From a virus (Duplodnaviria; Caudoviricetes): DNA of 64,000 nucleotides. Location: the IMG/VR virus record IMGVR_UViG_3300034061_006011, one strand, 5' to 3'. Shown piece by piece: positions 194 to 64,000 of this stretch (its first letter is position 1; each line of letters opens with the position of its first letter). The translations under genes and the position numbers were made by a program. The notes beneath the pieces are model-generated. The model was not told the DNA's origin. It searched no databases and was given only the letters and a program-made list of their open reading frames with translations.

Positions 194-631
194 ATGAGAA
201 GTTTTATTCAGTTCGTAGAACAAAAATCTGAAGAACAAAAAAATTTAAAAGCAACAATTGATAAGTTGCCTAAAAAACATCGCATGTTATTAGCAAACTT
301 TAAAATAAAGCTTACTTGCAAAAACACTCTAGATAATGATACCAATCACATAGGAAATATTAATAAATATGACATAGTGGTAGCAGCACCTTGGAATTAT
401 GGTAGAGAATTTACAACACTTCATGAAATCGCACATCTTGTTTTTGAAAAACTTGTTACAGAAAAACAAAAACAAGAGTGGAATAAACTTTGCAAAAAGT
501 TTTATAATAAAAAACCTAAAATGAATTGTGAAGAAGTTTTTTGCATGGTTTATGCTTCAAACTACTCAACTCATCATATAGAAACCTATAACATTCCAGA
601 ATTGACAGATTTTATCAAAACTTTAGACTAA
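194..631 (+). CDS. HExxH zinc metallopeptidase-like protein (ImmA/IrrE-like motif) with capsid-targeting-like N-terminus
   Basis: REFTTLHEIAH motif followed by EEVFCMVYA; N-terminus MRSFIQFVEQ; CATATATA box 4 nt upstream of ATG. Confidence 0.55.
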   Translation: MRSFIQFVEQKSEEQKNLKATIDKLPKKHRMLLANFKIKLTCKNTLDNDTNHIGNINKYDIVVAAPWNYGREFTTLHEIAHLVFEKLVTEKQKQEWNKLCKKFYNKKPKMNCEEVFCMVYASNYSTHHIETYNIPELTDFIKTLD

Positions 632-1083
632 CCACATTTATTTCCGCCACAGCATGGCTTTTTTGGGGCTGTAATGCCACATTTGTCTGGAGCAAGACAT
701 TCGGTCTTCTTTTTAATTAAACTGTACACAAGCGTGTTTTTGATGATTTCAACAGAATCAATATTATAAGTTGATAATGTATCTGTTTCGTATTCAACTA
801 CTAAATCCATGTCCATTTCATTTTCTATTAATGTACTAAGAATGATCTTCCTGATCTTGCCAGCATTAATGCGATGATCAAAATCATTAGCCACCCATAA
901 TTGAATAGAAGCATAATTTTCATTACGTTCTACGCCGCCACAATCTCTAAATTTTTTATTGATAGTAGCAGCTTCTGTGACATGAAAATGAAATGGTATA
1001 AATTTACCATCAGGAGTCTTAAAAGCTACTTTATTATCTTCTGAAACAGTATCAAGATTCTTAAAAAAACTACTTACTTTCAT
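628..1083 (-). CDS. DUF6428-like Cys/His-rich protein
   Basis: PFHFHVTE...DCGG...IQLWVANDFDHR...VEYE...KTECLAPDKCG and CC-rich tail, recalled pattern of DUF6428. Confidence 0.65.
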   Translation of the reverse strand: MKVSSFFKNLDTVSEDNKVAFKTPDGKFIPFHFHVTEAATINKKFRDCGGVERNENYASIQLWVANDFDHRINAGKIRKIILSTLIENEMDMDLVVEYETDTLSTYNIDSVEIIKNTLVYSLIKKKTECLAPDKCGITAPKKPCCGGNKCG

Positions 1084-1095
1084 AATTATTCTCCT

Positions 1096-1815
1096 TTAAA
1101 CTGATCTAGCTTGTGCCTGACTCACAATCTTTGGCAGAAGTGCCAATGCTTCTTCAGAAAGCTTTTCATATGTGTTAACATCAACAGAGAATGCCTTGTA
1201 ATGATGAACTAAGTTATTCTTCATTACTTGTGGTTTAAAGCCTTCCTGTTGTGCTCTGAGTGTTGCAATGAAGGCATTACCAACAAGAGGAAGTTGTTCT
1301 GGGAAAAGATTAATCTTCTCCATGCATTGTCTTGTTGTGAGCAAACACCATTCTTGAACAAATTCAACTTTTTGATTGCCGATCATATACTGACCAGATT
1401 CAAGTCCTACAAATCCGCTCTTATTTGCTTCAGCGACATTAATCATCAAATCAATCCAAGCTGGATTAAGAATGACGACATCGTAATGCATGAAAATAAC
1501 ATATTTGCTGTTCTTATTAGCATGTCTGAATCCAAGATTAGCTGCTGCGCTAAAATAAAGATTCTTGTCATTACGAACAACTTTGACATCCTTTTCAAGA
1601 TCATCAAGGAATGTCTGAGTTTCTGGTCCGCTAGCATTATCAACAACAATAATTTCATAATTATTGTTGATTGAATTTACAGCAATTGATTGCAAGCAAA
1701 TATTAAGATATTCTGGTTTGTCCTTGTGTACGATTACAATAGACACAGAATCTTGTATATTTGCTTTAGCAAGATCAATCTTAAGTTCGTTTCTATTCTG
1801 AATATCAGGTTGCAT
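1096..1815 (-). CDS. Glycosyltransferase family 2
   Basis: VSIVIVH...LNICLQSI...YEIIVVDNASG...N motif of the GT2 N-terminal domain. Confidence 0.8.
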   Translation of the reverse strand: MQPDIQNRNELKIDLAKANIQDSVSIVIVHKDKPEYLNICLQSIAVNSINNNYEIIVVDNASGPETQTFLDDLEKDVKVVRNDKNLYFSAAANLGFRHANKNSKYVIFMHYDVVILNPAWIDLMINVAEANKSGFVGLESGQYMIGNQKVEFVQEWCLLTTRQCMEKINLFPEQLPLVGNAFIATLRAQQEGFKPQVMKNNLVHHYKAFSVDVNTYEKLSEEALALLPKIVSQAQARSV

Positions 1816-1816
1816 A

Positions 1817-2032
1817 TTAATCCTCTATTTCAACTTCATGTACATTTCGTTCAAAAACGCAGTTAATTGTTTGATCTTTTGTTTTTAATGGTTCACTGTA
1901 AACTCTTGGCACAGAGTTCATGTACTTCTGTGCCGATTCGGTTGAACTAAATGATTTTTCTATTTTAACGACAGTAAGTCTGCCATCTATTTCATTCCCA
2001 ACATTAACAACAATATAAGCTTTCAATTTCAT
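1817..2032 (-). CDS. Hypothetical protein
   Basis: 71 aa ORF, ATGA overlap with dut stop, operonic. Confidence 0.6.
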   Translation of the reverse strand: MKLKAYIVVNVGNEIDGRLTVVKIEKSFSSTESAQKYMNSVPRVYSEPLKTKDQTINCVFERNVHEVEIED

Positions 2033-2883: not shown

Positions 2884-3369
2884 ATGATTGGATTCAAAAA
2901 ATTTATAGAAAATAAAAACCCATTTTCAGGTTTTAACAAACCGTTCCCCGGAGCTGTACAAACAAGCAGTGACACCGGATCACAAGCTGTTTCAACATTT
3001 GGATACTCTGGAAGACCGAACCACTTACCAGATTTAGACTTAGCTATAAATGATGGTGAATTTGGCATACCAGAAGTTGTAAAAGAGAAAATGGTAACTG
3101 TTTTGAATGACAAGAAAAAAATAATTGAAATTGAATTAGAAGACGGGACTAAACTTTACTTTAGTCCCGGTCAATACAGATCAATTCAAGGGGATTTGCC
3201 TATCATCCCTAATAAGACCAAGCTAAAAGTCGCTTTCCAAAGACACGGAAAGGACATTAGCTCTGATTCATCAAATATAACTCGTATAGAAGCGTCATAC
3301 TGTGGTCCTCAATATTTAAGAAACGCCTATAAAATTAAAAATGTTTCTTTCAAACCAGTACAGCTTTGA
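2884..3369 (+). CDS. Hypothetical protein with capsid-targeting-like leader (start likely MIGFKKFIE at 2884)
   Basis: ORF 2866..3369; second ATG gives MIGFKKFIENK leader. Confidence 0.6.
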   Translation: MIGFKKFIENKNPFSGFNKPFPGAVQTSSDTGSQAVSTFGYSGRPNHLPDLDLAINDGEFGIPEVVKEKMVTVLNDKKKIIEIELEDGTKLYFSPGQYRSIQGDLPIIPNKTKLKVAFQRHGKDISSDSSNITRIEASYCGPQYLRNAYKIKNVSFKPVQL

Positions 3370-4216: not shown

Positions 4217-4963
4217 TTAACACTCCGCTGTTGGGCTAGCTGAAACCTCTACTATGAAGCCTTCCTTGTCGTTAGGGAATCTTCTTGCCCATTCGACACC
4301 AAGACCTAATTCGCAATGATAATCAATATTGCTAGCTGGTATTATATCAATGCTATCAAGGCTTGTTAATAGGTTCATTTTTAAGACTTTAAACTCGAAA
4401 TAATATTTACCTATAAAACAAACGTCTTCTGGCTTCCACTCATAAATGAGAAAGCTTTTCTGCAAAACATTAAGAGAAATTGTTCCATCGATATTTTCTT
4501 TGTCAGAATATACCATTTCTGAAGCAGCAGCAGCATTTATGAATCTTAAAACTTTTACAGGTGTGCCTTTCAACCAAGGACGAATTCTTGTATCACAAGC
4601 GCCTCGTTGTACTTGAATGACCTTATTAACATCATCAAAGCCAACAACTGTCATTCGTTCAAAATCTCTACCAGAAGATACATGGAGAATAGAATTTGGA
4701 CCAACACTATCATATCCAACATTATCAGCAAATTTAATTAAATTGTCATTTATAGTTAAAGCAGTTTTAAGTTTTGCATTTGTCCACATATTTGCTTCAA
4801 CAACCAAATCTTTCAAATCATATGGTTGTTGATCGCAATCAGTAACTTCAATCCTAAGAGGAGGGTAAGTACTGTGTTGCTTTGTTACATAATCAGGAGT
4901 TCCTGAAATAGATGAATTGCAACAATCAGTTGTATTAATCCAAGCAGATTTACAATTAACCAT
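4217..4963 (-). CDS. Putative virion structural protein (BppU-like Ig-fold segments)
   Basis: YPPLRIEVTDCDQQPYDLKD and IYEWKPEDVCFIGKYYFEFKV resemble BppU-type baseplate domains; start at MVNCK with GAAGGA RBS. Confidence 0.4.
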   Translation of the reverse strand: MVNCKSAWINTTDCCNSSISGTPDYVTKQHSTYPPLRIEVTDCDQQPYDLKDLVVEANMWTNAKLKTALTINDNLIKFADNVGYDSVGPNSILHVSSGRDFERMTVVGFDDVNKVIQVQRGACDTRIRPWLKGTPVKVLRFINAAAASEMVYSDKENIDGTISLNVLQKSFLIYEWKPEDVCFIGKYYFEFKVLKMNLLTSLDSIDIIPASNIDYHCELGLGVEWARRFPNDKEGFIVEVSASPTAEC

Positions 4964-5177
4964 GTTTTTTCCTTCGCCTCTTGCGTTTTGGTTTATGTTT
5001 ACCGTCAGTTGTCCCAAAAGTATCAATTAATTTGTTCATAATATCAGGAGGAGGAGTGCTGTGGCTCATGAAGTCTGCTCTTAATGGATAAGAACCCTTT
5101 CTGCCCCAACCTAGCCTTTGACGAGTCAGAGGAGATGATTCTTGCATTAATCGCCAATCTTCATATTTTATCAGCAT
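4956..5177 (-). CDS. Small basic protein with leader motif and KRKRRRKK tail
   Basis: MLIKYEDWRLMQES...KHKPKRKRRRKKHG. Confidence 0.6.
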   Translation of the reverse strand: MLIKYEDWRLMQESSPLTRQRLGWGRKGSYPLRADFMSHSTPPPDIMNKLIDTFGTTDGKHKPKRKRRRKKHG

Positions 5178-5508
5178 TTATCTCCTTAAAATGTCTTGGT
5201 TTTATTTTGCCTTGATCTAATTTTCTCAAAGTTTCCAAGTCAATTTCTTGCTTGGCTTTATTATATATGCTCATAAGACTCTTAAATTTATAAAACTGTT
5301 TTGAAAGAAAAGAAGCGTTTGCCTTATACCCTGTATGATCAGTAAATAGATAAATATAATTCTCTCCCATAACATAAAAATATTCCATAGCCTCTTTATG
5401 AGGACTTTTATCAAAATATTTATATAAGAAAGAATGCTCTTTATTGGCTTTTGATTTTACAAAAGCCAAGTTGAGCCAAAGTAGATTATATTCTTCAAAT
5501 GTTTTCAT
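5161..5508 (-). CDS. Hypothetical protein with MKTFEEY leader
   Basis: CTAAATA box 6 nt upstream of ATG. Confidence 0.6.
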   Translation of the reverse strand: MKTFEEYNLLWLNLAFVKSKANKEHSFLYKYFDKSPHKEAMEYFYVMGENYIYLFTDHTGYKANASFLSKQFYKFKSLMSIYNKAKQEIDLETLRKLDQGKIKPRHFKEINADKI

Positions 5509-10931: not shown

Positions 10932-13400
10932 CTAGTTTATTAAAACAATTCTGTAATCAAGAGTGTTTGATGGCAAAAGATATCTTTTATGTTGAGGAGG
11001 AGAGTTTAAACTAAAAGTAGAAAATCCATTGGTTGGTGGAGAAACCTGTATTGATAAACAATTATTCTTTTCTAGAATATGCTTAAATATCACATAATCG
11101 TCTGCCCATACATTAATTCTTTCTATCCTAAACTCACTGTCCATGCCAATTAACTGACAATATGATTTGTTATTCTTAGAATACTTAACATTCACATCTA
11201 AAACTTCAATCTGAACATTGTGCCTGCGAACACCATTAGCATGCAATTCAATAGAATTTGCAAATGTACAACTAGGATCGTACATTTTGAATGTAGACAA
11301 TCGACAAGTAAACTGAAAACCATAATGCTTTCTTTCTGCCAAATGAATGTCGTTAAGATCAAGAATCAATTCTTTATCATCAATTGTAATTTCATCTTCA
11401 TCAAAATCATCATAACTAATCTCTACCTCGGCTGTTCCTTTCTGTGTCATCCTCTTCCATTTTTTATGCAATTTCAATACGTCTGGACTAGGATTTATAC
11501 TTGAAAGTATACCAAACAAACTTTCAGATAACTCCAAATTATAATACTTTTCTGGCAATAAACTCATAATACTTTTCTTAAGATCCAAATAACTTTTATT
11601 AGATCTTTTATTCTTGTCAATAACTTTCTTGTTCTGAAGAGAATACGCTTGCCAGAACTTGTAATCCTTCTCAGTATTGACCCCAAACACACGCAAAGGA
11701 ATCAAAGCTTTCAATACACTAGCATCCGATCCAAACCGCTGTAGAAAATCGTGTATGCCCTTATAAGGCTTCTTTAATACTATATCTCTAGCTGTATCCT
11801 CTCCAATTCCCTTAATGTTGCCAAACCCTGCATAAATCTGATTGTCTTGAATAGAAAAATTATAACTGCTTTTGTTTATGTCAACAGGATTAACAATCAC
11901 TCCATGCTTGTAAGCATCTGTAATGTAAACTCTTTTCTTCTCCTCATCCTTTTCTAACATCAGAAGAGCAGCATAAAATTCAAGCGGATAATGTGTCTTT
12001 AAATATAGTTGGCGTGATGAAACGTAAGTATAAGCTGTGGCATGACTTAGGTTGAATCCATAAGCGGCGAAAGCTTCAATTTCAGAGAAAATTTGTGCTA
12101 CTTCTTCTCTTGTTGCTTCAAGTACATGGATGCCGTTTTCAATAAACTGTTCTTTATATTTTATAAAGCTTGATATTTTTTTCTTTGAAATGGCTTTTCT
12201 GATTGTTTCGCAGTCTTTGAGTGGAATTTTACCAACTACGTTAAGGATTCTCATAACTTGTTCTTGGTAGACAATAATTCCATATGTAGAAGAAAGAATT
12301 GGTGCAAGAGCGGGATGAAGTGTGTATTCTTCTTGTTTTGTTTTTCTTCTAATGAATACTTTATCCATTTCTGCGTTAAGCGGACCCGGACGATACAAAC
12401 TGACGATTGCTACTAAGTCATTAAAACTATCGATCCCAGAGGCTTTTACGACCTCTCTAATGCCACTGCTATCATACTGGAACACACCAATAAGATCTGC
12501 GTCATTAGCATTTGCTATTGATTTTGGATCATTCAGATAAGATATATCATCCCAATCTTCATTATTGCCTGAAATGAATTTTACATTATGTCTTTCTTTT
12601 ACCATCTTTGCAGTATATGCCATTTGTTCTAAAGCACTAATTACCAACAAATCAAATTTTACAAGACCAAGCGGTCCAAGTTCTTGTGTCGCTAATCCTT
12701 CAACAAATTGTGATACTAAGTGATCACCACCAGTAGTTTTCATTAAGGGAACGAATTTGTTAATTTCATCTCTGCATATAATAACACCACCAGCATGTTT
12801 GCCTGTATTTCTAATTCTATGAAGCAACTTTTGAACTGCTAATGCTAATTCTGGATATTTTCCAAGATATGATTTTAATTCAGGAAAAGTATCAACAGCT
12901 TCCTCATAAGTCAATTCATCCCCATCTTCATCTCTCATCCTTAAATTCTTAGTAATATTTAAAACTTCATTTCTGTCTAATCCATATATTCTCGCCATGT
13001 CAATCATGGCGCTCTTAAGAGCATATCTTCCATAAGTTCCGATTGAACAAGTATTTACAGCTTTGTATTCACTAGGTGCGTATGTATTTTTAAGATAATC
13101 TCTAACATCTGCTATAAAGTCAATATCAACGTCTGGAAATTCATTTGTTTTTGTTTTAGGCATTTCGTTTATGTTAAATTCATCACATATTCCGAGAAGA
13201 ACTGGAACAAGGAGATTGTTTTCATTGGGTAATTTCTTTTTTTGTCTTACGAGGTCGATGAAATAATCGCAGCAATTTTGTGTTTCAATTTCAATTAATT
13301 CATATCTGAGCCTGAACTTATGTTCTGGATCATTGCAAAAAGGAAATTTGTTAAACTGATGTTTGATCAGTTTTGTAAAATTTTCAATTGTAATGCTCAT
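10932..13400 (-). CDS. dnaE: DNA polymerase III alpha (DnaE), C-terminal polymerase/HhH/OB part of a split gene
   Basis: FPDVDIDF, GKHAGGV, GLVKFDLL, GVFQYDS, LYRPGP, IIVYQEQVM, AYGFNLSHA, GFGNIKGIG. Confidence 0.92.
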   Translation of the reverse strand: MSITIENFTKLIKHQFNKFPFCNDPEHKFRLRYELIEIETQNCCDYFIDLVRQKKKLPNENNLLVPVLLGICDEFNINEMPKTKTNEFPDVDIDFIADVRDYLKNTYAPSEYKAVNTCSIGTYGRYALKSAMIDMARIYGLDRNEVLNITKNLRMRDEDGDELTYEEAVDTFPELKSYLGKYPELALAVQKLLHRIRNTGKHAGGVIICRDEINKFVPLMKTTGGDHLVSQFVEGLATQELGPLGLVKFDLLVISALEQMAYTAKMVKERHNVKFISGNNEDWDDISYLNDPKSIANANDADLIGVFQYDSSGIREVVKASGIDSFNDLVAIVSLYRPGPLNAEMDKVFIRRKTKQEEYTLHPALAPILSSTYGIIVYQEQVMRILNVVGKIPLKDCETIRKAISKKKISSFIKYKEQFIENGIHVLEATREEVAQIFSEIEAFAAYGFNLSHATAYTYVSSRQLYLKTHYPLEFYAALLMLEKDEEKKRVYITDAYKHGVIVNPVDINKSSYNFSIQDNQIYAGFGNIKGIGEDTARDIVLKKPYKGIHDFLQRFGSDASVLKALIPLRVFGVNTEKDYKFWQAYSLQNKKVIDKNKRSNKSYLDLKKSIMSLLPEKYYNLELSESLFGILSSINPSPDVLKLHKKWKRMTQKGTAEVEISYDDFDEDEITIDDKELILDLNDIHLAERKHYGFQFTCRLSTFKMYDPSCTFANSIELHANGVRRHNVQIEVLDVNVKYSKNNKSYCQLIGMDSEFRIERINVWADDYVIFKHILEKNNCLSIQVSPPTNGFSTFSLNSPPQHKRYLLPSNTLDYRIVLIN

Positions 13401-13468: not shown

Positions 13469-13762
13469 ATGGCAAAAAAAATTAAATCATTAGCTGCTTA
13501 TAAAAAAGATTTAGAAATCAGTGATTCTCGTAAGAAAATGCAAGACATCATGAAAAGTTATGCTTTTCCTGATCCGAATGCACCAGAAGACACATTTGTC
13601 AAAGGTAAGCATTACGGTTTCCCACTACAAGGCAAAAAGAGTTTGCCCTATAGAGCTAAAGGTTATAACACAGATAAGCCTTTTGGCGATTTAGGAACAC
13701 CAAGTATTGATTTTTCAAAGACAAGTAAATTTGATGACTATGAAGTTAGCCACTTGGACTAA
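13469..13762 (+). CDS. Hypothetical protein
   Basis: GAGGTG RBS and TAAATA box (13446-13451) upstream. Confidence 0.65.
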   Translation: MAKKIKSLAAYKKDLEISDSRKKMQDIMKSYAFPDPNAPEDTFVKGKHYGFPLQGKKSLPYRAKGYNTDKPFGDLGTPSIDFSKTSKFDDYEVSHLD

Positions 13763-13764
13763 AA

Positions 13765-15117
13765 ATGATGAACTTTAAATCTTGGTTAATTTTATCTGAA
13801 ACAATAACGGTCAAGGACCAAGAATTTCGTGAGCCATTGACTGCATTGAAACACATACAAGAAACTCATCCAAATCCAGAAAATCTTGTTGTTACGTTTA
13901 CAATGATTGATAAAGTTGGCATCAATCCAAAAAGTAAATACGATACGCCTCTTGGCATTTACTTTTATCCAATAGATTTTGTCATTGAAAAGAAAATGAA
14001 TGTTCCATTTGCTGGAGAACAACCTTATCTTAATGTTTGCGAGTTTACAAGACCAGAAAAAATATTACACATGACTTCTGATATAAATAATCAGAAAGGA
14101 TTGGATTTACTTAATGTGTTTGCAAAAGAAGAAGTTGATCTTGCAATAGAACGCCTTGAGAACAATTATGAATTGCGTAGTAATTATTCTAAATTATGGC
14201 TTGTGACCAGAGAAATGGCATTCCATAAACCTGTTTTATGGAATGCTAATTTAAGAAAATGTGAGATTGATGGATTTGTAGATCATAATACTAAAACAAT
14301 TCATGAAAACGAACCAACTCAAGGTGTTGTTTTTACTGGTACTGCGTTGAGAAGGATACTTGTGATTCCACAAATATTGAGGAAGCCATTACCTGATATA
14401 AACAAAATTCCTTTGAACCAACTTGAAAAATTGTTAAAAAATAGAAATTTGTTTAATAATGATATTCAAAAATTTCTTGATGACGCAGAAAACAAAGATG
14501 AAATAGCAAGAATTATAATTCAATATAAACCAGAATTGTCTAATGACGATATTTCTACTTTGCTTTATTATGCAGAAAATAAAGATGAAATAGCAAGAAT
14601 ATTGGGTTCAGACAATATTAATAAATTATCTGATGATGATATTTATAGTTTGCTTAGACTTACAAAAAACAAAGATGAAATGGCAGGAATATTTTCATCA
14701 GACAATATTAATAAATTATCTGGTGATCATGTTTATAACTTGCTTATTTATACAAAAAACAAAGGTCAAATGGCAAGAATATTAGGTCCAGACAATATTA
14801 ATAAATTAACTGCTAAAAATGTTTCTGATTTGCTTCATTATGCATCTAACAAAAATAAAATGGCAGAAATGGCAGAAATATTAGGTCCAGAAAATATTAA
14901 TAAATTAACTAATAGTGATGTTTATAGTTTGCTTCGTAATGCATATGACATAGAAGAAATGGCAAGAATATTAGGTAAAGAAAATATTGATAAACTAAAT
15001 TCTGATAATGTTTATAATTTGCTTCATTATGCATCTAACAAAAATAAAATGAGACAAATCTTAAGAAAGTATTACACAGGAACAAATCCAGAAGTAATTT
15101 CTTTACTCAAACAATAA
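13765..15117 (+). CDS. Putative ADP-ribosyltransferase-fold protein with ~30-aa helical repeats; capsid-targeting-like leader
   Basis: MMNFKSWLILSE; TPLGIYFYP, PYLNV, EIDGFVD, IHENEPTQGVVF shared with 51182..52624. Confidence 0.45.
   Translation: MMNFKSWLILSETITVKDQEFREPLTALKHIQETHPNPENLVVTFTMIDKVGINPKSKYDTPLGIYFYPIDFVIEKKMNVPFAGEQPYLNVCEFTRPEKILHMTSDINNQKGLDLLNVFAKEEVDLAIERLENNYELRSNYSKLWLVTREMAFHKPVLWNANLRKCEIDGFVDHNTKTIHENEPTQGVVFTGTALRRILVIPQILRKPLPDINKIPLNQLEKLLKNRNLFNNDIQKFLDDAENKDEIARIIIQYKPELSNDDISTLLYYAENKDEIARILGSDNINKLSDDDIYSLLRLTKNKDEMAGIFSSDNINKLSGDHVYNLLIYTKNKGQMARILGPDNINKLTAKNVSDLLHYASNKNKMAEMAEILGPENINKLTNSDVYSLLRNAYDIEEMARILGKENIDKLNSDNVYNLLHYASNKNKMRQILRKYYTGTNPEVISLLKQ
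14491..15060 (+). repeat. Coding tandem repeat, about 90 bp / 30 aa unit, 6-7 copies
   Basis: Units such as NKDEIARILGSDNINKLSDDDIYSLLRLTK and NKGQMARILGPDNINKLTAKNVSDLLHYAS; DNA repeats gcaagaatattaggt and gacaatattaataaatt. Confidence 0.9.
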
Positions 15118-16837: not shown

Positions 16838-17578
16838 TTAAACCTTTACCACTCCAAGCATGCGATTTCTTACATCCCGCCAACCAATCATATTAGGAAC
16901 TTCAAAGTCACCATTTCTTACCAATAGCAAGCCGTTTTCTTTAACAGCGCCCATGATTTTGTTAATATCAAATTTATATTTGTTCATATCCCAGAATATT
17001 ATTTTATATTTTTTTTCAGGTTCAAGTTCTGTTGTAAGCTTCATGCTATGTTGAAACATATGTTTATTTTCTAGAACATAATCATCAAGAACTAATGTTT
17101 CTGTTTCATCTTCTGTGAAGAAAAATGACCATATATAACCAAATGGCATATTGCCATATTGGTCACTAAGTCTATAGTAGTGTGGCGATTTGTTTGTGTA
17201 ATAAAAATGCCACTCATCTTTAAAAAATTCTTTTAAATTAATTTTCTCATAATTTCTTAGAACCAAATCAGTATCAGTATCAAATTTCAATGGAGACTCT
17301 GAAAAAGCACCTTTGACCAACATGCTTTCACAATATTTTTTAATATAATTGTTTACATAATCAATATTTTTGATTAATTCTTCATCACAAAACACATTAA
17401 AAAAACATCTTTTTTGAATAATAGACTTTAAAAAACATGTATTAGCAAGAGATCTGTCTCCGAATAAAAATATTTTAACATTTTTATCTTCCAGACTGTT
17501 ATCAAATTTAGAATACCATTTACCGAATGGTAAGCCGGGTGCATTTTGAAAAACGAATCTTAAAGCTGGTTGACTCAT
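16838..17578 (-). CDS. Hypothetical protein translationally coupled to spoVR
   Basis: ATG overlaps spoVR TGA (ATGA). Confidence 0.6.
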   Translation of the reverse strand: MSQPALRFVFQNAPGLPFGKWYSKFDNSLEDKNVKIFLFGDRSLANTCFLKSIIQKRCFFNVFCDEELIKNIDYVNNYIKKYCESMLVKGAFSESPLKFDTDTDLVLRNYEKINLKEFFKDEWHFYYTNKSPHYYRLSDQYGNMPFGYIWSFFFTEDETETLVLDDYVLENKHMFQHSMKLTTELEPEKKYKIIFWDMNKYKFDINKIMGAVKENGLLLVRNGDFEVPNMIGWRDVRNRMLGVVKV

Positions 17579-49169: not shown

Positions 49170-49874
49170 ATGCGAGAATTTTACAAAGCATCCAACGAGC
49201 AAATGTTCAAGCTATCTGGCGAACCAGATATGCTTTTTGCATACCATCTCACAATCTACTACCTAAATTGTGAGAGATTTTATTTTCCTGACTATAAACA
49301 CACGCCATTTAACGACTTAAAGCCAGTTAAAAAACAAGCAGTTTTCAAACATTTGCTTAAACTCGTCAAAGATAGAAGAGCTGAATTTGAAACATCTTCT
49401 AACTATTTTCTTTTTATAAAAGCTCAATTTGAAATAGCTAAAATACTTGAAAAAAACAATCCATACATTTATCCCGGAATGTTACATGGCATAAAAGCAA
49501 TGAACCGTTTTTATGTTTGGAGTAAAAAAATTGAAGAAAAAAGAATGGTTCTGAAAGCTAATGATAAAACATTAGATCAGTCTAGCATAAACGTAGGACT
49601 TAATAAATCATTAGAATCACTCAAAAGAACTCTTGGTGATAACTTAGATTATGAAACTTTTGTGAAAAATATAAAAAGAATCTTGCTTCAAGTAAGATGT
49701 AGAGAACTAGATCCCATTTGGTGTTTTTGCAGCAATTGGGTGAAAAAATTACCAGAAGAAATTCGTGATGAAATTTATAACATCAGTGAATGTGATAAAT
49801 TTAAAGATTTTAACACTGAAGAAATCAATAAATTATATCAAGAAAAATTTATATTTGAGAACTGTGTTCCCTAA
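49170..49874 (+). CDS. Hypothetical protein next to origin-like region
   Basis: 234 aa ORF divergent from polA-like gene. Confidence 0.65.
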   Translation: MREFYKASNEQMFKLSGEPDMLFAYHLTIYYLNCERFYFPDYKHTPFNDLKPVKKQAVFKHLLKLVKDRRAEFETSSNYFLFIKAQFEIAKILEKNNPYIYPGMLHGIKAMNRFYVWSKKIEEKRMVLKANDKTLDQSSINVGLNKSLESLKRTLGDNLDYETFVKNIKRILLQVRCRELDPIWCFCSNWVKKLPEEIRDEIYNISECDKFKDFNTEEINKLYQEKFIFENCVP

Positions 49875-50802
49875 AATACAATGAATAATCTCTTCCATAA
49901 GTATTTATAATACGTTTCAACATCTGTTCTACAGCTGGTTTTAAGTTTTTATACTTATTTTTTTGTTCTTTTTTATTTGATCCTTCCATGGAATTAATTT
50001 TATCTACCATTTCTTTTATCTTTTCAATCAATTCATTTACTCTGAATGAGTATATCCTATCGCCATCTTCTGGTGGAATGTAAGATAATATTAAAGCATT
50101 ATTTCCAAATTCTTCTTGTGATAATAAAACTCTTAAAGCTTCAACGCCATTACTAATAATTGGATCTTTTTTGTGACTGCCTCTTTCAGGTATTGGTGAT
50201 TCTGTTTCTTCTGGAGATTCTTCTTCCATATCTCCGGGTCTTGACTTTCTTCCTAATCCAAAATATTGAGACAACTCACTTCCCGGTTGTTTGCCAAATC
50301 CGGGCTGACGAGCAGCTTGAAACATTCTTATAGCACCAGTTACTGGAGATGCTACAATCTGACCAGCACCTTTTCCTATTTGACTTAAACCACTTAATAA
50401 AGAACTACTAGCAGAATACAATCCCTTTTTAACTTCACTTGAACCCATATCTATCAAAGCCCAATCGTTACTTATTGCTCCTATTGGAAGACCAACGCCA
50501 GTTTCGATTGCTCCTAATCCTGCTCTTGTTAATCCAAAAGCTCCACCAGCAGAACCTTTAGCAGCTCCACTAATGATATTTAAAATTCCTTTAATATTTT
50601 GCTCACCAACATGACCCAATCCTGCAACTAATCCCTTGGCAGTACTGCCAATGCTGCCAAGAATGCTTTCATTAAGCATGATTCCTTTTCTGTTAAAATG
50701 TTCAATAATTTGATCTAGTTTATAATTTTTATCCAAAAGACGATTGAACTCTTCTAAAATTTCGTTATCTCTTTTAAGAACAAATGCTGAAAAATTTGTC
50801 AT
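49849..50802 (-). CDS. Gly-rich amphipathic protein with leader motif
   Basis: MTNFSAFVL...LNESILGSIG; CATAAATA (50818-50825) and GAGG RBS. Confidence 0.65.
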   Translation of the reverse strand: MTNFSAFVLKRDNEILEEFNRLLDKNYKLDQIIEHFNRKGIMLNESILGSIGSTAKGLVAGLGHVGEQNIKGILNIISGAAKGSAGGAFGLTRAGLGAIETGVGLPIGAISNDWALIDMGSSEVKKGLYSASSSLLSGLSQIGKGAGQIVASPVTGAIRMFQAARQPGFGKQPGSELSQYFGLGRKSRPGDMEEESPEETESPIPERGSHKKDPIISNGVEALRVLLSQEEFGNNALILSYIPPEDGDRIYSFRVNELIEKIKEMVDKINSMEGSNKKEQKNKYKNLKPAVEQMLKRIINTYGRDYSLYFREHSSQI

Positions 50803-51181: not shown

Positions 51182-52624
51182 CTAAAAATAATTTTCTAAT
51201 ATCTTTATTAAGTAACGCTTAATATTTGTGTACATATAACTCGCTTCATGTTTTTCTATATTAGCAATTTGTTCGTTTATTTTTTCTTTCATTTGATTTA
51301 CAATTTGCTGTGAATCAATTTCTTCTGGTAATTGATTCACAGTAATATTGCTAAGTGTAAGTGTTGAAGGTCTTAATCTGAGAAATTCTGAAACTTTTCC
51401 AACCAAATAAATTGTTGTGCTATTCTTTATTAAATCTGGACAAATGCTAATTTTCAAATTTCCTCTAATTTCAGATCTATTTATATTAATTTGAGTTGTA
51501 GACGCAGCACAAAAAGATGGTCTTGAAGTTATTGTGATTTTTGCATTAGGTAATCCCATAATTTTAATTATTTTATTTAGTAATTCAACAGATGGTTCCA
51601 AGGGATCTGTATTAGATAATTTAATTATTGTTTCTAACTTTTCATGAATTTCTTTCTTTGCAATTTCCCAATCATCCATATTAATTAATGCATAATCTTT
51701 TCCATAACCATGTCGATCAAAACGATTTGAATACACATTAACATATTTTTTATCAGGCATGTCTACATAACAACTTATATTGCCGTCTCCAAGATGATAT
51801 CCTATTGAAAAAACATATCTTGCTTTTGGATCTTCTGATATTGTATATATTGAAAAATTATTTGTAGCTCCAAAATCTGATGTTTTTTTGAAATTATATC
51901 CTCTTGCTGTTTCTGTCGTACCAGTTTTTTTGCTTTGTATAGAATATTTATTAAAATATTTCATCCCAACAGAATTGGCAATATCATACATTTTACGCCA
52001 AATTATTTTTGAATATTCTGCCATTGGAGATTCAACTGTTTTAACAACATTAATGACACTTGGATTAATAACACAGATTTGTTCTGGTTCATTCGAATGA
52101 ATTATACTATCGCCTTCATCAAGTATTGCATCGAAATTACCAGCCATTGCAAACAATTTATTCCAAGTAACATTTCTACTTAATTCGTTTGTCGCAATAT
52201 ATTTTTCCATTGTATACCATAACAAATGTCCGCCTTTTTTACCATGCAAGCTTCGCCAATATGGCTTATCAGTATAATCAGATATTCCCATCTTTTCTAA
52301 CAATTCTTTTGCTTCATCAATTGATATCTTTGAAAGATTAAGAACTTTGGCTTTTTCTGATAATTTAAAAACATAAATGTAAGGCATACTCCAAAAACCT
52401 TCATTTGTACGGTTTTCTTGAAGCATATACCTTTTTGTGAAAGCATAAATTCCAATTGGGTCATGGTGAGATGGTCTCAATGATAATTTCATGTTAATTC
52501 TTGGTCTGTCTGAAAAATTAACATACAAGTCTTCTTGACTTTCACGAAGGAAATCAAGAAGACTTTTATACATATTTCTAATATCATTTATTGCTTCTAA
52601 CAATAACCATTCTTTAAACATCAT
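51182..52624 (-). CDS. Putative ADP-ribosyltransferase-fold protein, paralog of 13765..15117
   Basis: MMFKEWLLLEA; DPIGIYAF, PYIYVF, NFDAILD, IHSNEPEQICVINP; CATAAATA 6 nt upstream. Confidence 0.45.
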   Translation of the reverse strand: MMFKEWLLLEAINDIRNMYKSLLDFLRESQEDLYVNFSDRPRINMKLSLRPSHHDPIGIYAFTKRYMLQENRTNEGFWSMPYIYVFKLSEKAKVLNLSKISIDEAKELLEKMGISDYTDKPYWRSLHGKKGGHLLWYTMEKYIATNELSRNVTWNKLFAMAGNFDAILDEGDSIIHSNEPEQICVINPSVINVVKTVESPMAEYSKIIWRKMYDIANSVGMKYFNKYSIQSKKTGTTETARGYNFKKTSDFGATNNFSIYTISEDPKARYVFSIGYHLGDGNISCYVDMPDKKYVNVYSNRFDRHGYGKDYALINMDDWEIAKKEIHEKLETIIKLSNTDPLEPSVELLNKIIKIMGLPNAKITITSRPSFCAASTTQININRSEIRGNLKISICPDLIKNSTTIYLVGKVSEFLRLRPSTLTLSNITVNQLPEEIDSQQIVNQMKEKINEQIANIEKHEASYMYTNIKRYLIKILENYF

Positions 52625-52643: not shown

Positions 52644-53453
52644 TCAATAAGTCTTGAATATATTTTCAAGAATAGTTACAATTTCACTTTTGTTTTGATC
52701 AGGAGTGAAATATTCATTCCATTCAGGTGATTGGGCTTCATAGTCATATCCAAGATGCTGAGATGAATGCTCTGCTCCCCAACATCTTATCAAACCTAAT
52801 TTTGGCAAAAATACTAAATAAACATTAAATTGATTCACTTTTCTTTGACTGGGAGCTTCAAGACCAAATCCTGTATAAGAAAAATAAACTATATATGTGT
52901 TATCATCCTGTCTCAATGTTCCTTCATAAACCATAACATCTGGATGCTTCAATTTCATGTTTGCTGCAATCATTACAACAAGTTCTAGAAAATTTTTGAA
53001 TTCAGCTTTAGGTGATTCTAAGTTTGTCTTATCAAGATATTCAGCAAGCTCATGTAATCTAACTGCAAGCATTTTCTCTACAGCAATATCTTCAGAGTTT
53101 AAATGTTCATAATCATTTACAACTGGTACTGAATACCTTGTTATCCAAACAGGTTCACCTTCTAAGTCTTTTATTTTTCGACAAATTGTTGCTCTACAAG
53201 AACCAAGAGGACTAAATTTAATTTGAATAGCACCTACTTGAGAAGAATCTCCATAGGTAACTAAGCTTCCAAAATCTTTTACTGGATCTTTAGTTCCAAT
53301 TGGACCAAGATTTATAATTTCATCTAAACATGTTTCTATTGCCAAGCCTTCAAGCGGTTCTTCATTATATCTCAATTCTTTAGTTTGAGATATACCTTTG
53401 TCAAAACCAAAGACAACATCAGGAGTTTTACCAGCCCACTCATTAAATTTCAT
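52644..53453 (-). CDS. Hypothetical protein with MKFNEW leader
   Basis: 269 aa; GAGG RBS. Confidence 0.65.
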   Translation of the reverse strand: MKFNEWAGKTPDVVFGFDKGISQTKELRYNEEPLEGLAIETCLDEIINLGPIGTKDPVKDFGSLVTYGDSSQVGAIQIKFSPLGSCRATICRKIKDLEGEPVWITRYSVPVVNDYEHLNSEDIAVEKMLAVRLHELAEYLDKTNLESPKAEFKNFLELVVMIAANMKLKHPDVMVYEGTLRQDDNTYIVYFSYTGFGLEAPSQRKVNQFNVYLVFLPKLGLIRCWGAEHSSQHLGYDYEAQSPEWNEYFTPDQNKSEIVTILENIFKTY

Positions 53454-53491
53454 ATCGCCTCATTATTTGTATTCTAAACATATATAGTAAC

Positions 53492-53776
53492 ATGATTACA
53501 TTCATTCAATTCATGGAAAACGTAGAAGAAGATAGCGAAAAAGATGCTTTCATTGATCAGTTTCAGCTAAACATAGATAAAGACAAAGGCTTTTATGCCA
53601 ATATTAATGAATTTGATAAAGAAAAATTAAAAGACCGATTGAAATCTTGGAGCAAATACGAAAAGATGTCTGCTGCTGATAAAAGCAATATAGAATCAAT
53701 AATTAATAAGAAGTCATCAAAATTATTGGATTTTTTCAATGCTTTATATTCAAAATCTAATCAACAAATTCAATAA
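53492..53776 (+). CDS. Small protein with leader motif
   Basis: MITFIQFMENVEE; CATATATA 5 nt upstream. Confidence 0.6.
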   Translation: MITFIQFMENVEEDSEKDAFIDQFQLNIDKDKGFYANINEFDKEKLKDRLKSWSKYEKMSAADKSNIESIINKKSSKLLDFFNALYSKSNQQIQ

Positions 53777-55245: not shown

Positions 55246-55437
55246 ATGAAACTAGAGAATGGAGAATTTTCCATGATTGACTCAATGATAGAACAAACGA
55301 TTAGTGTTGTAGAAAATCTTGAGAAAAGATTGCATGAGATTGGTGAGAAGCAAAAAATCATGGAAAAAAAGCTAGAAAAGATACATGTAACTAAAATTAA
55401 AGAAAAATCAATAGTTATTTGCGCTTCCGCACATTGA
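55246..55437 (+). CDS. Small coiled-coil hypothetical protein
   Basis: 63 aa; TAAATA immediately upstream. Confidence 0.4.
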   Translation: MKLENGEFSMIDSMIEQTISVVENLEKRLHEIGEKQKIMEKKLEKIHVTKIKEKSIVICASAH

Positions 55438-55885
55438 TGTAAAACAAGTAACTATTTTTTGACCCCGGTCTAAGACTCTTTTGATTTTGACGATAATCTA
55501 ATACAAGTTTTGTATCAGGATTTTCATAGATAACAAAATCTTTCAATCTTGATAAAACAGTTGTTATAAATTCTTTACTACCAGTAATTCTTAATGTATC
55601 TTCTTGTACCGTGCTTCCTTTATGAAAACTATCGATAGGTTCAAGTTGTAAAGGAATGTTTGGAGCTAATGCTTTCCAAAATCTTACAATTTCAGATTTC
55701 TTAGCCTTCCAAGGTTTTAATTTTGGATGATATCCTTGAACTTCTGGTTGTGGAACAGAACCCATAGTTGGTGCAGGAACATTGCTCGCATTAGCAACAG
55801 GAGAAGAAGATGTAGTTGGCTGTGCAGCAATCTGAGGCTCAGATGCTTCTTCAAATTTATTGATATATTCCCAAAATGTTTTCAT
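55415..55885 (-). CDS. Hypothetical protein with MKTFWEY leader
   Basis: Start at 55885, 6 nt from TATATA box. Confidence 0.65.
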   Translation of the reverse strand: MKTFWEYINKFEEASEPQIAAQPTTSSSPVANASNVPAPTMGSVPQPEVQGYHPKLKPWKAKKSEIVRFWKALAPNIPLQLEPIDSFHKGSTVQEDTLRITGSKEFITTVLSRLKDFVIYENPDTKLVLDYRQNQKSLRPGSKNSYLFYINVRKRK

Positions 55886-55891
55886 TGCTAA

Positions 55892-55897
55892 TATATA
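55892..55897. promoter_or_regulatory. Palindromic TATATA box centred between divergent start codons
   Basis: CAT-tgctaa-TATATA-cttagt-ATG, 6 nt each side. Confidence 0.55.
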
Positions 55898-55903
55898 CTT
55901 AGT

Positions 55904-56272
55904 ATGATCACAATTCATGAATTCAAACATAAAATATTTTTAACAGAAGCTGATGCTCCTCCTGCTGGCGCAGCGCCTCCTGCCGGTGGCGCACCTCCTG
56001 CTGCTGGTGGCGCTCCTCCTCCCGGTGGCGATGCAGGCGGTCTTGGTGGTAGTCTTGGTGGAGATCTAGGAGGCTTAGGAGGAGGAGGAATGGGTGGTGG
56101 AGCACCTCCTCCCGGATCAGATTTAGGCGGTGCAATTGGTGGTGCGGCAGGTGGCGGAACAACTCCTATAACAGATATTAAGAAATTAAATGCTTGGGAT
56201 CTTTTGGAAAAGTTTTTCCGTGATAAGAAAGATCCTAAAGAAGACAAAGATCCTCTGGACAAGTATACCTGA
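55904..56272 (+). CDS. Gly/Pro/Ala-rich protein with leader motif
   Basis: MITIHEFKHKIFLTEA then GGAPP repeats. Confidence 0.65.
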   Translation: MITIHEFKHKIFLTEADAPPAGAAPPAGGAPPAAGGAPPPGGDAGGLGGSLGGDLGGLGGGGMGGGAPPPGSDLGGAIGGAAGGGTTPITDIKKLNAWDLLEKFFRDKKDPKEDKDPLDKYT

Positions 56273-61918: not shown

Positions 61919-61925
61919 AATATAT

Positions 61926-61967
61926 TAACAGTTAGTATCTTGAATAATATCAAGATACTAACTGTTA
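61926..61967 (+). terminator. 18-bp perfect hairpin after nrdJ
   Basis: taacagttagtatcttga / tcaagatactaactgtta, 6-nt loop, followed by TTT. Confidence 0.75.
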
Positions 61968-61989
61968 TTTGTATGGAAAATAGGTTAAA

Positions 61990-62877
61990 ATGGATGAAAA
62001 TATTACATTTTATTACGCTTCTTGGAGTGATAAATCTAATATAAAAGACAAATGGTGGATCAATTTATTGTTCTCAATAATAACATTGAGAAGTGTTTAT
62101 CCAAAAAATAAAATAAAAATTATTTGTTATACTAAACCACCAAAAGAAATTTTTGATTATTCTTCATTACTTGATTACAAAGTCATTTATATTGAACAAT
62201 GGTATAAAAATTATACCAAAAAAAGATTTAATACACCCCTTTTATCGAAATTAAGAGATTGTTTTGAAATGTCTTTTGAAGAAAAAGAAAAAGTTATTCT
62301 TCTCGACAGTGATGCTTTTATAATCAAAAAATTTACAAACATAAATTGGAATAAAGTAGGAGTATACGGGACACATAATCACAATGTCAATACAGGTGTT
62401 TTAATATTTGATACAACAAAAGAAAACACCAAAGAATACAGAGAAATGTTTATAAAAGAAGTTGATGACATGCTTGATGAAAGCAAAGTTTTATCTGAAT
62501 ATACTCTGATTGCTTATCCTGTTGATGGAGAAAGAAGAATCATTCAAGAAGAAACAGTAACAAGAAATATATTTTACAAACACAAAGACTTTACAAATAA
62601 AGTCTTTCATAATATAGGTGTTGAAAATAATGGAATTATAAATATAGAAAAAATGAATAATTGTAAACATGTTGGCAACTTAAACAATATCCATTTAGCT
62701 ATTACACCCCCCGGCAAAATAGGAAGAATCATTATAAGCATTGACTTCTTTAAACAAAAAATTAAAAAATTCTTAGAAAAAATAAATGCTTCTTATGTTA
62801 TTGATGATTTAGTTGGCAATAAAGTTAATTTAGACATAAATAAATGCCTAGTAGTCAAGGAATTAAAATTCATATGA
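61990..62877 (+). CDS. GT-A fold glycosyltransferase (GT8-like)
   Basis: SIITLRSVYP, VILLDSDAF (DxD), VNTGVLIF, QEE. Confidence 0.6.
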   Translation: MDENITFYYASWSDKSNIKDKWWINLLFSIITLRSVYPKNKIKIICYTKPPKEIFDYSSLLDYKVIYIEQWYKNYTKKRFNTPLLSKLRDCFEMSFEEKEKVILLDSDAFIIKKFTNINWNKVGVYGTHNHNVNTGVLIFDTTKENTKEYREMFIKEVDDMLDESKVLSEYTLIAYPVDGERRIIQEETVTRNIFYKHKDFTNKVFHNIGVENNGIINIEKMNNCKHVGNLNNIHLAITPPGKIGRIIISIDFFKQKIKKFLEKINASYVIDDLVGNKVNLDINKCLVVKELKFI

Positions 62878-63812
62878 GAAATTACTGTATTGTTGTTCCA
62901 ACTATTAGAGAAAAATGCATTACAGACTTCCTAGAAAAATGGAAATTTGAATGTACTGTTATCCTGATTGAAGATAACCCTGAAAAAACATTTAAGATTA
63001 AAAAAGATAGTAGAATTCAGCATTATTCGTGGGAAGACATTGACAGAACATTTGGAAAAAAATCATGGATAATTTCAAGAAGAGATTCGGCAATTAGATC
63101 TTTTGGATTCTATTTGGCATATAAGCAGAATTTTGATTACATATTCACACTAGATGATGATTGCTATCCAATTGATGGTGTTGATTTCTTTACAGATCAT
63201 ATAAACAATTTAGAACAATTTCCAAAATGGACAGAAAGTTGTATTGGATATAGGACAAGAGGTATTCCTTACAAAAATCTAGGAACTCTTGATAATGTAA
63301 AACTTAGTGCTGGTCTGTGGGAAGGCGTTCCAGATCTTGATGCCATACAAACACTTTCTAATCAAAATATTAAATTGCCAGAAAACACAAGGATAATACC
63401 AAAGGGTCAGTATTATCCATTGTGTGGAATGAATATGTGTTTTAAAAGAGACTTAACACCATTAATGTGGTTTCCTCTTATGGGAGAAGGTTCTCCATAT
63501 AGAAGATTTGATGACATATGGTGTGGAATCATATCTAAGAAAATAATGGATCATTTGGACATTAATGTAACTGTAGGTAAACCTTTTATATTTCATAGTA
63601 GAGCAAGTGATGTATTTAAGAACCTTGAAAAAGAAACTCCCGGCGTTATTGAAAATGAAAAATTTTGGCAAATAATCGATTCTATTAAAATTCAAGGTTC
63701 AAATATTTTAGAATGTATGGCAGACATAGGCAAAAAATTAAAAAATATAGAAATTGATTATTATAAAAAAATTGGTATGGCTATAATAAATTGGGTTTCA
63801 TTTTTTGAGTAA
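62874..63812 (+). CDS. Reversibly glycosylated polypeptide / UDP-arabinopyranose mutase (GT75)-like protein
   Basis: IVVPTIR, DSAIRSFGF, IFTLDDDCYP, CGMNMCF, LMGEG..RFDDIWCG..KKIMDHL, FHSRAS..FKNLEKE match plant RGP motifs. Confidence 0.88.
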   Translation: MRNYCIVVPTIREKCITDFLEKWKFECTVILIEDNPEKTFKIKKDSRIQHYSWEDIDRTFGKKSWIISRRDSAIRSFGFYLAYKQNFDYIFTLDDDCYPIDGVDFFTDHINNLEQFPKWTESCIGYRTRGIPYKNLGTLDNVKLSAGLWEGVPDLDAIQTLSNQNIKLPENTRIIPKGQYYPLCGMNMCFKRDLTPLMWFPLMGEGSPYRRFDDIWCGIISKKIMDHLDINVTVGKPFIFHSRASDVFKNLEKETPGVIENEKFWQIIDSIKIQGSNILECMADIGKKLKNIEIDYYKKIGMAIINWVSFFE

Positions 63813-63831
63813 ATCAACCTAAATAACTATT

Positions 63832-64000
63832 ATGACTGATTTTAATTTTCGAGAATATGTGTTAAATGAAAACAAAGTTTATCTTGCAAAAGAGATAGGC
63901 GATGTCCTTAATTCAACACAAGAACTATCTGATGAAGTAAACAAGATAGGAACAAGGAACTTAGTTCGATACAGTCAAATTATAGTTAATAAGTGCAGAG
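63832..64000 (+). CDS. Partial ORF with leader motif, runs off the window
   Basis: MTDFNFREYVLNEN...; CTAAATA 6 nt upstream. Confidence 0.6.
   Translation, partial: MTDFNFREYVLNENKVYLAKEIGDVLNSTQELSDEVNKIGTRNLVRYSQIIVNKCR

Follow-up and report, generated by a model that had tools for sequence, protein, structure and literature searches.

Why do about 20 genes in one stretch of phage DNA, most of them unrelated in the rest of their sequence, start with nearly the same ten residues? The genes lie in a 64,000-nucleotide (nt) record of a virus of the Caudoviricetes (Duplodnaviria; IMG/VR record IMGVR_UViG_3300034061_006011), which as a whole is called the window below. Their common N-terminal leader resembles the capsid targeting sequence (CTS) of the internal proteins (IPs) of phage T4, and is very likely homologous to it. 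That the leader also has the same function, namely that of a portable address tag, is the reading that we consider probable, judging from the sequence and from the analogy with T4. Open reading frames (ORFs) that carry the leader are called tagged here.

The window has a guanine-plus-cytosine (GC) content of 32% and carries a replication and nucleotide-metabolism module. A 91-kb IMG/VR contig (G002) is 99.5% identical to it across positions 16072-64000 and runs 43 kb beyond into tail genes. The CheckV completeness of G002 is 16%, which implies a genome of several hundred kb. PrkA and DnaE led to relatives among uncultivated huge phages with sizes of 100-572 kb; these relatives and the window phage are together called the clade. 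Two distant relatives were taken whole, G004 (262 kb, 55% GC) and G006 (572 kb, terminal repeats, 40% GC), and 160 loci around PrkA or the capsid gene were sampled from further relatives. About 20 studies of lake water have metagenomes that contain the stretch; it was found in 20 DNA runs from lakes or fresh water, with no RNA run listed. A megablast search of GenBank phages with 5.6 kb of the window gave no match.

The sequence-only reading had quoted 20 N-termini with the leader. All 20 translate as written, 6 on the + strand and 14 on the - strand (Table 1). With a position matrix trained on relatives alone, the window's own phage being left out, 17 of the 20 are robust (p <= 0.0023), and the other three are weak. 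The leader begins at residue 1-3 in 16 of the 17 robust cases and is shifted by 5 in the protein at 39742. The starts at 2884, 31910 and 55885 are not the first ATG of their frames; the choices at 31910 and 55885 are supported, because a TATATA hexamer sits 11-12 nt upstream.

The motif is concentrated at N-termini. A loose regular expression, ^M.{0,6}[FYH]..[FWY].{0,5}[LIMFV].E, applied to first-ATG starts only, matched 12 of 89 window ORFs. Internal positions would give about 0.9 matches and shuffled N-termini 1.1, and no more than 7 were reached in any of 2000 shuffles. Its strict form matched 9 ORFs against 0.27 expected, also with first-ATG starts. With the position matrix, again on first-ATG starts, 14 of 90 window ORFs score higher than the 99.5th percentile for internal sites, where 0.45 would be expected. 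Away from the N-terminus the motif is rarer by a factor of more than 30. The enrichment is found again in G002 (14 against 0.9 expected), in G004 (14 against 3) and, for the strict form, in G006 (17 against 1.8). Among the 160 loci, the loose form occurs 252 times against 35 expected and the strict form 139 times against 11.

The consensus of the clade is M-K-T-F-K-E-[W/F/Y]-[L/I]-x-E or the same motif ending in -x-L-x-E, with a length of 10-13 residues. Position 4 is F (rarely Y), position 7 is W, F or Y, position 8 is L or I in 76% of the leaders, and Glu peaks at positions 10-12. The training set for this consensus was picked by a regular expression that requires the aromatic residues at positions 4 and 7, and the support for these two residues comes from the enrichment tests. 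The same consensus is found at 32%, 40% and 55% GC. The Phe and Leu codons in the leaders track the usage of each genome, TTT/TTA at 32% GC and TTC/CTG at 55% GC, which shows that selection acts on the peptide and not on the DNA.

The codons also bear on the idea that the leader is an expression feature, i.e., that the first codons are tuned for translation initiation or mRNA stability, for example in leaderless transcripts that begin at an ATG following TATATA or TAAATA. In 8 of the 17 robust leader genes, such a hexamer starts 9-16 nt ahead of the start codon without a Shine-Dalgarno site, and for Lys and Glu the leaders prefer AAA and GAA, the 55% GC relative included. Both observations fit an expression feature. 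However, amino acid classes and not bases are conserved (W/F/Y and L/I/M replace one another), and the Phe and Leu codons shift with the GC content. Many leader genes have an ordinary Shine-Dalgarno site, and the leaderless-type hexamer also precedes many genes that are not tagged. The leader is absent from every enzyme in the window that was recognized with Pfam, as the sequence-only reading had stated, although these enzymes need expression likewise. A nucleotide-level explanation was rejected on codon usage, and we regard the leader as very improbable as a mere expression feature.

The hexamers are nevertheless associated with the tagged genes. In the window, TAAATA or TATATA is found within 40 nt upstream of 11 of the 17 robust leader genes versus 9 of 69 others (p 4e-5). 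TAAATA is found at 10 of 14 leader genes versus 9 of 105 others in G002, and TATATA at 13 of 44 versus 42 of 951 in G006. The extended form [AC]TAAATA[AG] lies upstream of 5508, 24158, 41469, 42038, 50802, 52624 and 63832, and also of 62844 and 55246. Both motifs resemble the T4 late promoter TATAAATA, and [AC]TAAATA[AG] is close to it. TATATA is also found ahead of the head operon and the tail sheath gene.

The location of TATATA should be described separately. It lies 9-16 nt ahead of start codons that have no Shine-Dalgarno site; where two genes diverge, it often forms a palindrome in the spacer of 10-21 nt. Examples are 55886-55903 (TGCTAATATATACTTAGT, 18 nt, between the starts 55885(-) and 55904(+)), 185-193 and 53454-53491 in the window, and sites throughout G006, where 68 genes have TATATA, mostly at -10 to -15. 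This arrangement suggests that TATATA may be a clade-specific promoter that gives leaderless or near-leaderless mRNAs in both directions.

The leader is distributed modularly, i.e., it is joined to many different bodies. After 15 residues had been trimmed, the 20 window proteins were compared by all-against-all BLASTP. Nearly all bodies are unrelated, as had been proposed; one pair, 13765-15117 and 51182-52624, is linked (24% identity, E 6e-5). In all sequence gathered, 340 tagged ORFs fall into 178 clusters without detectable mutual similarity, and the number of tagged families across the sampled relatives is at least 178. The mean identity in 15 families is 0.51 in the leader and 0.41 in the body, a comparison that is biased by the selection of members for the leader and is not used as evidence. 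The mature parts tend to be basic in three of four genomes (median isoelectric point 8.2-8.9 versus 6.3-6.9), and T4 internal proteins are described likewise.

The 20 window proteins show no significant family in Pfam and PHROG, with sub-threshold matches alone, and an Atlas search with 40771-41469 gave no usable match. A Pfam scan of 48 larger tagged proteins from the clade found ART-PolyVal (two), Acb1, ArdcN, RNA_ligase, 2_5_RNA_ligase2, AAA_33, PolyA_pol (CCA-adding type), HAD_SAK_1, NIF, Peptidase_S8, FSH1 and DUF5661. According to PMC7824862 (after Iyer et al. 2017), ART-PolyVal and related domains occur in polyvalent proteins injected with phage DNA. At G006 528070-531080 (locus L128), four successive ORFs, at least three of them tagged, include an enzyme of the CCA-adding/poly(A) polymerase family and a HAD_SAK_1 RNA-repair domain; the stretch looks like a tagged RNA-repair cluster.

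These domains are relevant to another explanation, in which the tagged genes are one old, expanded paralogous family that kept its N-terminal helix while the bodies diverged, the leader being inherited and not necessarily a signal. The local paralogues 13765-15117 and 51182-52624, adjacent genes with near-identical leader DNA, and the lack of a recognizable family for most bodies fit this explanation. The folds are distinct, however: ADP-ribosyltransferase (ART)-like, PGDYG, CCA-adding enzyme, subtilase, HAD, NIF phosphatase, Acb1 and RNA ligase. Moreover, the Pfam models of homologues exclude the leader, the structural match to PGDYG starts after residue 12, and the 178 clusters show no detectable similarity to one another. 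A single paralogous family was rejected on the diversity of folds, and is highly improbable in our judgment.

The likeness to the T4 CTS, on which the sequence-only reading was built, holds in detail. IPII and IPIII (MKTYQEFIAE), IPI (MKTFKEF..) and gp61.1 (MKTFKEFIKE) fit the clade consensus. With the same gene caller and regular expression, IPII, IPIII and gp61.1 were recovered from the T4 genome, where IPI starts with MKTFKEF. The T4 CTS is established, as are similar leaders on variable internal proteins of T-even phages (PMC3012670, PMC9026906). The T4 CTS, which is found on IPI, IPII and IPIII and removed by gp21 (Mullaney & Black 1996; reviews PMC9026906, PMC3012670), has the same N-terminal place and the same length of 10-13 residues as the clade leader. 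In both, positions 4 and 7 are aromatic, position 8 is aliphatic and Glu stands at about position 10, and both are joined to unrelated, fast-evolving bodies. The review PMC9026906 describes mutagenesis of the T4 CTS (Mullaney & Black), in which residues 4 and 7 serve mainly for targeting and residues 8 and 10 for processing. Tyr4 and Phe7 are given there as the targeting determinants in IPIII, and Asp at position 10 blocks cutting while targeting is kept. The best-conserved positions of the clade leader are the four residues required in T4 (4, 7, 8 and 10).

The two leaders differ in several points. The position of Glu varies in the clade (9-13), often with an extra L-x, and many families have no cleavage motif. 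About 4 of 281 ORFs are of this kind in T4 versus 14-17 of 90 in the window; the tag is found on 3-4 genes in T4, but on 15-20% of the genes in the window and on dozens per genome in relatives. Unlike T4, the clade phages and their hosts are uncultivated. We rate it as a variant, greatly expanded, of the known T4 system. The promoter association, the codon test, the tagged neighbor of the head operon, the ART-like cargo and the indel at a leader are new, and a literature search found no paper on CTS-like leaders across dozens of huge-phage genes.

The head machinery of the clade is of the T4 type. G004 and G006 encode an S77 (gp21-family) protease (at 471564-472280 in G006), a terminase, a portal of the T4 type (gp20) and a capsid protein of the Gp23 family (E 2e-84). 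Homologues of gp17, gp18 and gp4 were found in the clade by tblastn with T4 proteins; those of gp18 and gp4 are present in G004 and G006, and a gp4-like protein is encoded in the window and a gp18-like one in G002. The same search with T4 gp55, gp33, gp45, gp22, gp67, gp68, Alt and Inh against the window, G002, G004 and G006 gave none at E 1e-3, which is a weak test for such divergent proteins. In 80 capsid loci, the operon order is conserved: a 605-residue protein, the protease, a 300-residue putative scaffold and the capsid protein. Nearly all of these loci have a tagged gene of 100-140 residues (MKTFxxYxxLxE) next to the head operon and divergent from it, and no part of this gene is nearly as well conserved as its leader. 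In another arrangement (L174), three tagged genes directly follow the capsid gene, the last of them being orthologous to window 41517-42038 with 60% identity. TAAATA was sought upstream of the capsid gene without a consistent motif; the capsid gene, close behind the scaffold gene, is probably co-transcribed with it.

The loci L131-L210 have a conserved L-N-E in the N-terminus of the capsid protein (MNANSRFLNEAKELE.RW) and in that of the protease (..L.LNES..). These positions are candidate cleavage sites for the clade protease. When the clade protease (A4) and the tagged protein of the head module (A5) were modeled as a complex, the score was 0.00 with no answer, i.e., evidence neither way. In the T4-type portal gene of G006 (476937-479477, L125), an intein splicing domain was matched.

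The tag could also be a docking or address peptide for a destination other than the head interior, with a convergent or repurposed likeness to the T4 CTS. Such a destination could be another part of the virion, a compartment or membrane site that the phage builds, or a chaperone or modifying enzyme common to the tagged proteins. A modular tag selected as protein is expected from any sorting signal, and Gly-rich hydrophobic stretches follow some leaders, e.g., ..GLLGGLALGAASMFAG in 40192-40758. The choice of hexamer fits as well, as described below. Contrarily, the conserved positions are all four residues that function in T4, the cleavage pair included; the head machinery is of the T4 type with a tagged gene fixed beside its operon; and no alternative partner gene was seen to co-occur with the tag. 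A destination other than the head interior is rather unlikely in our view. Some reading other than this one, the two treated above and targeting to the head is quite unlikely.

Several observations weigh against targeting to the head and should be considered together. In the window phage, most leader genes have TAAATA, whereas the tail sheath gene and structural-looking genes in G002 have TATATA; the leader genes may therefore form a separate temporal class. Among the 178 clade families, 52 (about 30%) have the aromatic core with no [LIMVF]-x-E nearby. The tagged fraction of 15-20% of window genes is more than ten times that of T4 and implies a very heterogeneous cargo, and we know of no packaged precedent for a tagged CCA-adding enzyme or HAD_SAK_1. 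The window and the 91-kb G002 have none of the S77 protease, scaffold and capsid genes, which were seen only in relatives whose PrkA is about 60-68% identical. The head module of the window phage was not recovered because the window and G002 are fragments. A search for the S77 protease in G002, G003, G005 and G007-G010 gave no match, and all of these are fragments, so that absence does not follow. Neither blastn nor blastp found an overlap that links the capsid-module contigs to the window phage. Finally, gp21 relatives of the phiKZ type cut after S/A/G-x-E. The propeptides of phiKZ and SPN3US, which are cut in this manner, are long, and to our knowledge no short common CTS-like leader has been reported for them. 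The present clade, unlike these phages, has a short T4-like leader. phiKZ and SPN3US are also giant phages with a gp21-related protease, which processes their ejection and inner-body proteins, and a large, diverse mass of packaged and ejected protein (PMC5694885, PMC7411985, PMC10052503).

If the leader acts as in T4, the aromatic residues at positions 4 (F) and 7 (W/F/Y) would bind the new protein to the scaffolding core while the prohead assembles. The prohead protease of the gp21 family (S77) would then cut after [LIM]-x-E, with Glu at position 9-13, and the mature protein would be kept in the head with the DNA and enter the host at infection. We infer docking, cleavage, packaging, injection and late expression of the tagged proteins from sequence and from T4, and the "arsenal of injected proteins" that had been proposed would hold by homology in the same way. 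In the clade the tag has spread to very many unrelated genes, about 17 in the 64-kb window and at least 178 families in the sampled relatives. Many of these genes are small cassettes, each with a promoter-like hexamer (TAAATA or TATATA) of its own. The tagged proteins of the clade comprise ART-like, ArdC-like and RNA-repair domains, and domains like those directed against the cyclic-oligonucleotide-based antiphage signaling system (anti-CBASS-like). In its widest form the proposal is that the clade, with genomes up to about 570 kb, uses the T4-type leader as a general, recombination-portable tag. The tag would load about 50-100 proteins, at least a tenth of the proteome, as a pre-made injected arsenal (ADP-ribosyltransferases, anti-CBASS-like, ArdC-like and RNA-repair enzymes), from cassettes that would often bring a TAAATA or TATATA promoter, placed such that translation is leaderless or nearly so. 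We put forward this wider version tentatively, as plausible.

If the tag works as in T4, the leader alone, a 10-residue motif, would predict the injected proteome of uncultivated huge phages, i.e., list from sequence only the proteins that they carry into the cell. Injected proteins would act ahead of phage gene expression and would be prime candidates for new counter-defense or host-takeover functions; most tagged proteins in the window belong to no known family. The T4 internal-protein system of three or four proteins would be one that can grow to a substantial share of a proteome, and the leaders would add variants from nature to a packaging tag with which foreign proteins are already brought into T4 heads.

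Among the tagged proteins of the window, 51182-52624 belongs to a small, clade-restricted family in which most members keep the leader. Pfam gave nothing at E <= 0.01. In the AlphaFold 2 model (mean predicted local distance difference test score 77.5), the leader is a low-confidence N-terminal helix. The Atlas features match the ART-PolyVal and AcrIF11 clusters at 0.92-0.93, and the AFDB matches include ART-PolyVal-like and DUF3990 entries. In a comparison of residues 20-199 with the PDB, a chain of the cyanophage A4 pre-ejectosome (9k3a_B) has Z 7.7 and AcrIF11 (6kyf) has Z 5.7, followed by PARP3, tankyrase, PARP1, NatT and MbcT at Z 5.0-5.3, which are moderate values in the range of chance. 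Foldseek with the 480-residue model found none in the PDB at E <= 0.001, with 9k3a_B as the best at 1.3e-3. The Z values alone are moderate, but the methods agree, and residues 20-199 are thus likely an ART-like domain. H53, Y60, Y66 and E179 are conserved in the family alignment, and H53, Y60 or Y66, and E179 are the predicted catalytic set. The protein 13765-15117 would be ART-like by its paralogy to the modeled one.

This protein can be compared with T4 Alt, an ADP-ribosyltransferase that is processed by gp21 and injected with the DNA. 51182-52624 and, by sequence similarity, its paralogue 13765-15117 would likewise pair a propeptide of the head-protease type with an ART-like domain, and the common logic would be that of a pre-made host-modifying enzyme. 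They have no sequence similarity to Alt, and the N-terminus of Alt (MELITELFDE) is not a classical CTS. Polyvalent proteins and further injected effectors with several domains (Iyer et al. 2017, cited in PMC7824862), and the cyanophage A4 pre-ejectosome (PDB 9k3a), have a repertoire in common with the clade: ART-PolyVal, ArdC-N and counter-nucleotide enzymes. Unlike the giant polyvalent polypeptides, the modules of the clade are mostly separate small genes, each with its own tag. A longer protein of a relative (P0018, 809 residues) has a tagged ART-like module, repeats and the conserved domain of 51182-52624, with a leader-like TFKKYLMLKE at the junction, and could be a polyprotein cut by the head protease.

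The protein 41517-42038 belongs to the PGDYG family (PF14083). The Pfam match has E 2e-4, below the curated cut-off, with Atlas features at 0.94-0.95. The structural match (template-modeling score 0.79-0.83) covers residues 12-171, i.e., the part past the leader.

The junction between leader and body was also observed in the comparison of the window with G002. The end of a 352-bp indel coincides exactly with the leader of 40192-40758, the leader DNA of which is 94% identical over 33 nt to that of the neighbor 40771-41469, the bodies being otherwise unrelated. This is one of three indels between the 99.5%-identical sequences. The 352-bp piece (40772-41124) gives 40771-41469 a C-terminal domain; a 0.8-kb piece found only in the window (36628-37424) carries the ORF 36737-37408; and a 1.7-kb two-gene piece is found only in G002, at window 61922-61972. 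A leader-like motif at the C-terminal end of the ORF 25701-26978 may be the fossil of a leader, the remnant of a lost tagged gene. Leaders as recombination joints would fit both the indel and this motif.

Table 1. Coordinates of tagged genes and other features in the window and its relatives. Positions refer to the window unless a contig or locus is given; scores and p values are those of the leader matrix, and negative numbers are distances in nt from the start codon.
Feature	Position	Strand	Evidence and remarks
Leader gene, 145 residues, MRSFIQFVE	194-631	+	score 10.8, p 0.0013; TATATA 10 nt ahead of ATG
Leader gene, 161 residues, MIGFKKFIE	2884-3369	+	p 0.0011; internal ATG, frame opens 2866
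Leader gene, 73 residues, MLIKYEDWRLMQE	4956-5177	-	p 0.0023; Shine-Dalgarno site upstream
Leader gene, 115 residues, MKTFEEY	5161-5508	-	p 0.0023; core without L-x-E; TAAATA at -12
Split DnaE	15125-16468 and 10932-13400	-	two + strand genes between the halves
Leader gene, 450 residues, MMNFKSWLILSE	13765-15117	+	p 0.0002; paralogue of 51182-52624 (predicted ART-like N-domain); between split DnaE halves
PrkA, DUF444 (YeaH), SpoVR operon	17575-22454	-	
Leader gene, 52 residues, MTFKDFLQLDE	23686-23844	-	score 18.1; "HGG(D/S)R" family, upstream of PrkA throughout clade
Leader gene, 105 residues, MLSFKKYMNQIEE	23841-24158	-	p 0.0005; TAAATA at -15
Leader-like motif, ..SLTFKNWLLIKENILF, at the C-terminal end of a 425-residue ORF (25701-26978)	26930-26978	+	score 19.6
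Leader gene, 70 residues, MKGFKNWLNE	31330-31542	-	p 0.0003; clade-wide "TSTADVA.F" family
Leader gene, 123 residues, (V)KTFIEFLKE	31539-31910	-	score 19.2; GTG start (VKTF.. read as M); TATATA at -11; divergent from gp4-like gene
gp4-like (T4) head completion protein	31929-32546	+	tblastn E 5e-13; sole T4-type head gene within the window
Leader gene, 143 residues, MSIPLRFTEWLEE	39742-40173	+	p 0.0003; leader offset 5 residues
Leader gene, 188 residues, MKFHEYVQLRE	40192-40758	-	leader matrix; 352-bp indel versus G002 ends at leader
Leader gene, 232 residues, MKFHEYVQLRE	40771-41469	-	body unrelated to 40192-40758; 120 residues in near-identical G002
Leader gene, 173 residues, MKSFQEYYLMRE, PGDYG-family body from residue 12-15	41517-42038	-	leader matrix, profile, structure
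Weak candidate, 317 residues, MTNFSAFVLKRD	49849-50802	-	p 0.03
Leader gene, 480 residues, MMFKEWLLLE, likely ART-like domain (about 20-200), C-terminal domains	51182-52624	-	TAAATA at -12
Weak candidate, 269 residues, MKFNEW	52644-53453	-	p 0.0095; core without L-x-E
Leader gene, 94 residues, MITFIQFME	53492-53776	+	p 0.0005; TATATA at -11
Leader gene, 156 residues, MKTFWEYINKFEE	55415-55885	-	score 17.6; internal ATG, frame opens 55930; TATATA at -12
Weak candidate, 122 residues, MITIHEF..FLTE	55904-56272	+	p 0.024; 18-nt spacer TAATATATA common with 55885
Leader gene cut by window end, 160 residues in G002, MTDFNFREYVLNE	63832-64000	+	p 0.0007; TAAATA at -12
CCA-adding type, tagged	G006 528841-530340		Pfam
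ART-PolyVal, tagged	G006 425306-426022		Pfam
HAD_SAK_1, tagged	G006 530376-531080		Pfam
NIF, tagged	G004 154310-154999		Pfam
Subtilase, tagged	L034 2794-3870		Pfam

The other genes of the window comprise those for RecA-like, gp32-like, DnaB, PolA and UvsW-like proteins, gp47/gp46-like nuclease subunits, a class II-type ribonucleotide reductase, ThyX, glycosyltransferases and the gp4-like protein. The upstream DnaE half encodes the PHP and N-terminal part and the other half the remainder. The two are parted by two + strand genes, a 97-residue ORF (13469-13762) followed by the tagged ART-like paralogue. The PrkA operon sits in a phage, with PrkA identities of 59-100% in 80 IMG/VR huge-phage contigs, and the two small tagged genes directly upstream of PrkA are kept clade-wide. 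A PfkB kinase fused to a cytidylyltransferase (HldE-like), an RGP-family glycosyltransferase, a GT2 glycosyltransferase and a papain-family protease are encoded at 24296-25666, 62844-63812, 1096-1815 and 27757-28563, and may have a role in sugar-nucleotide metabolism or in glycosylation of the surface or the DNA.

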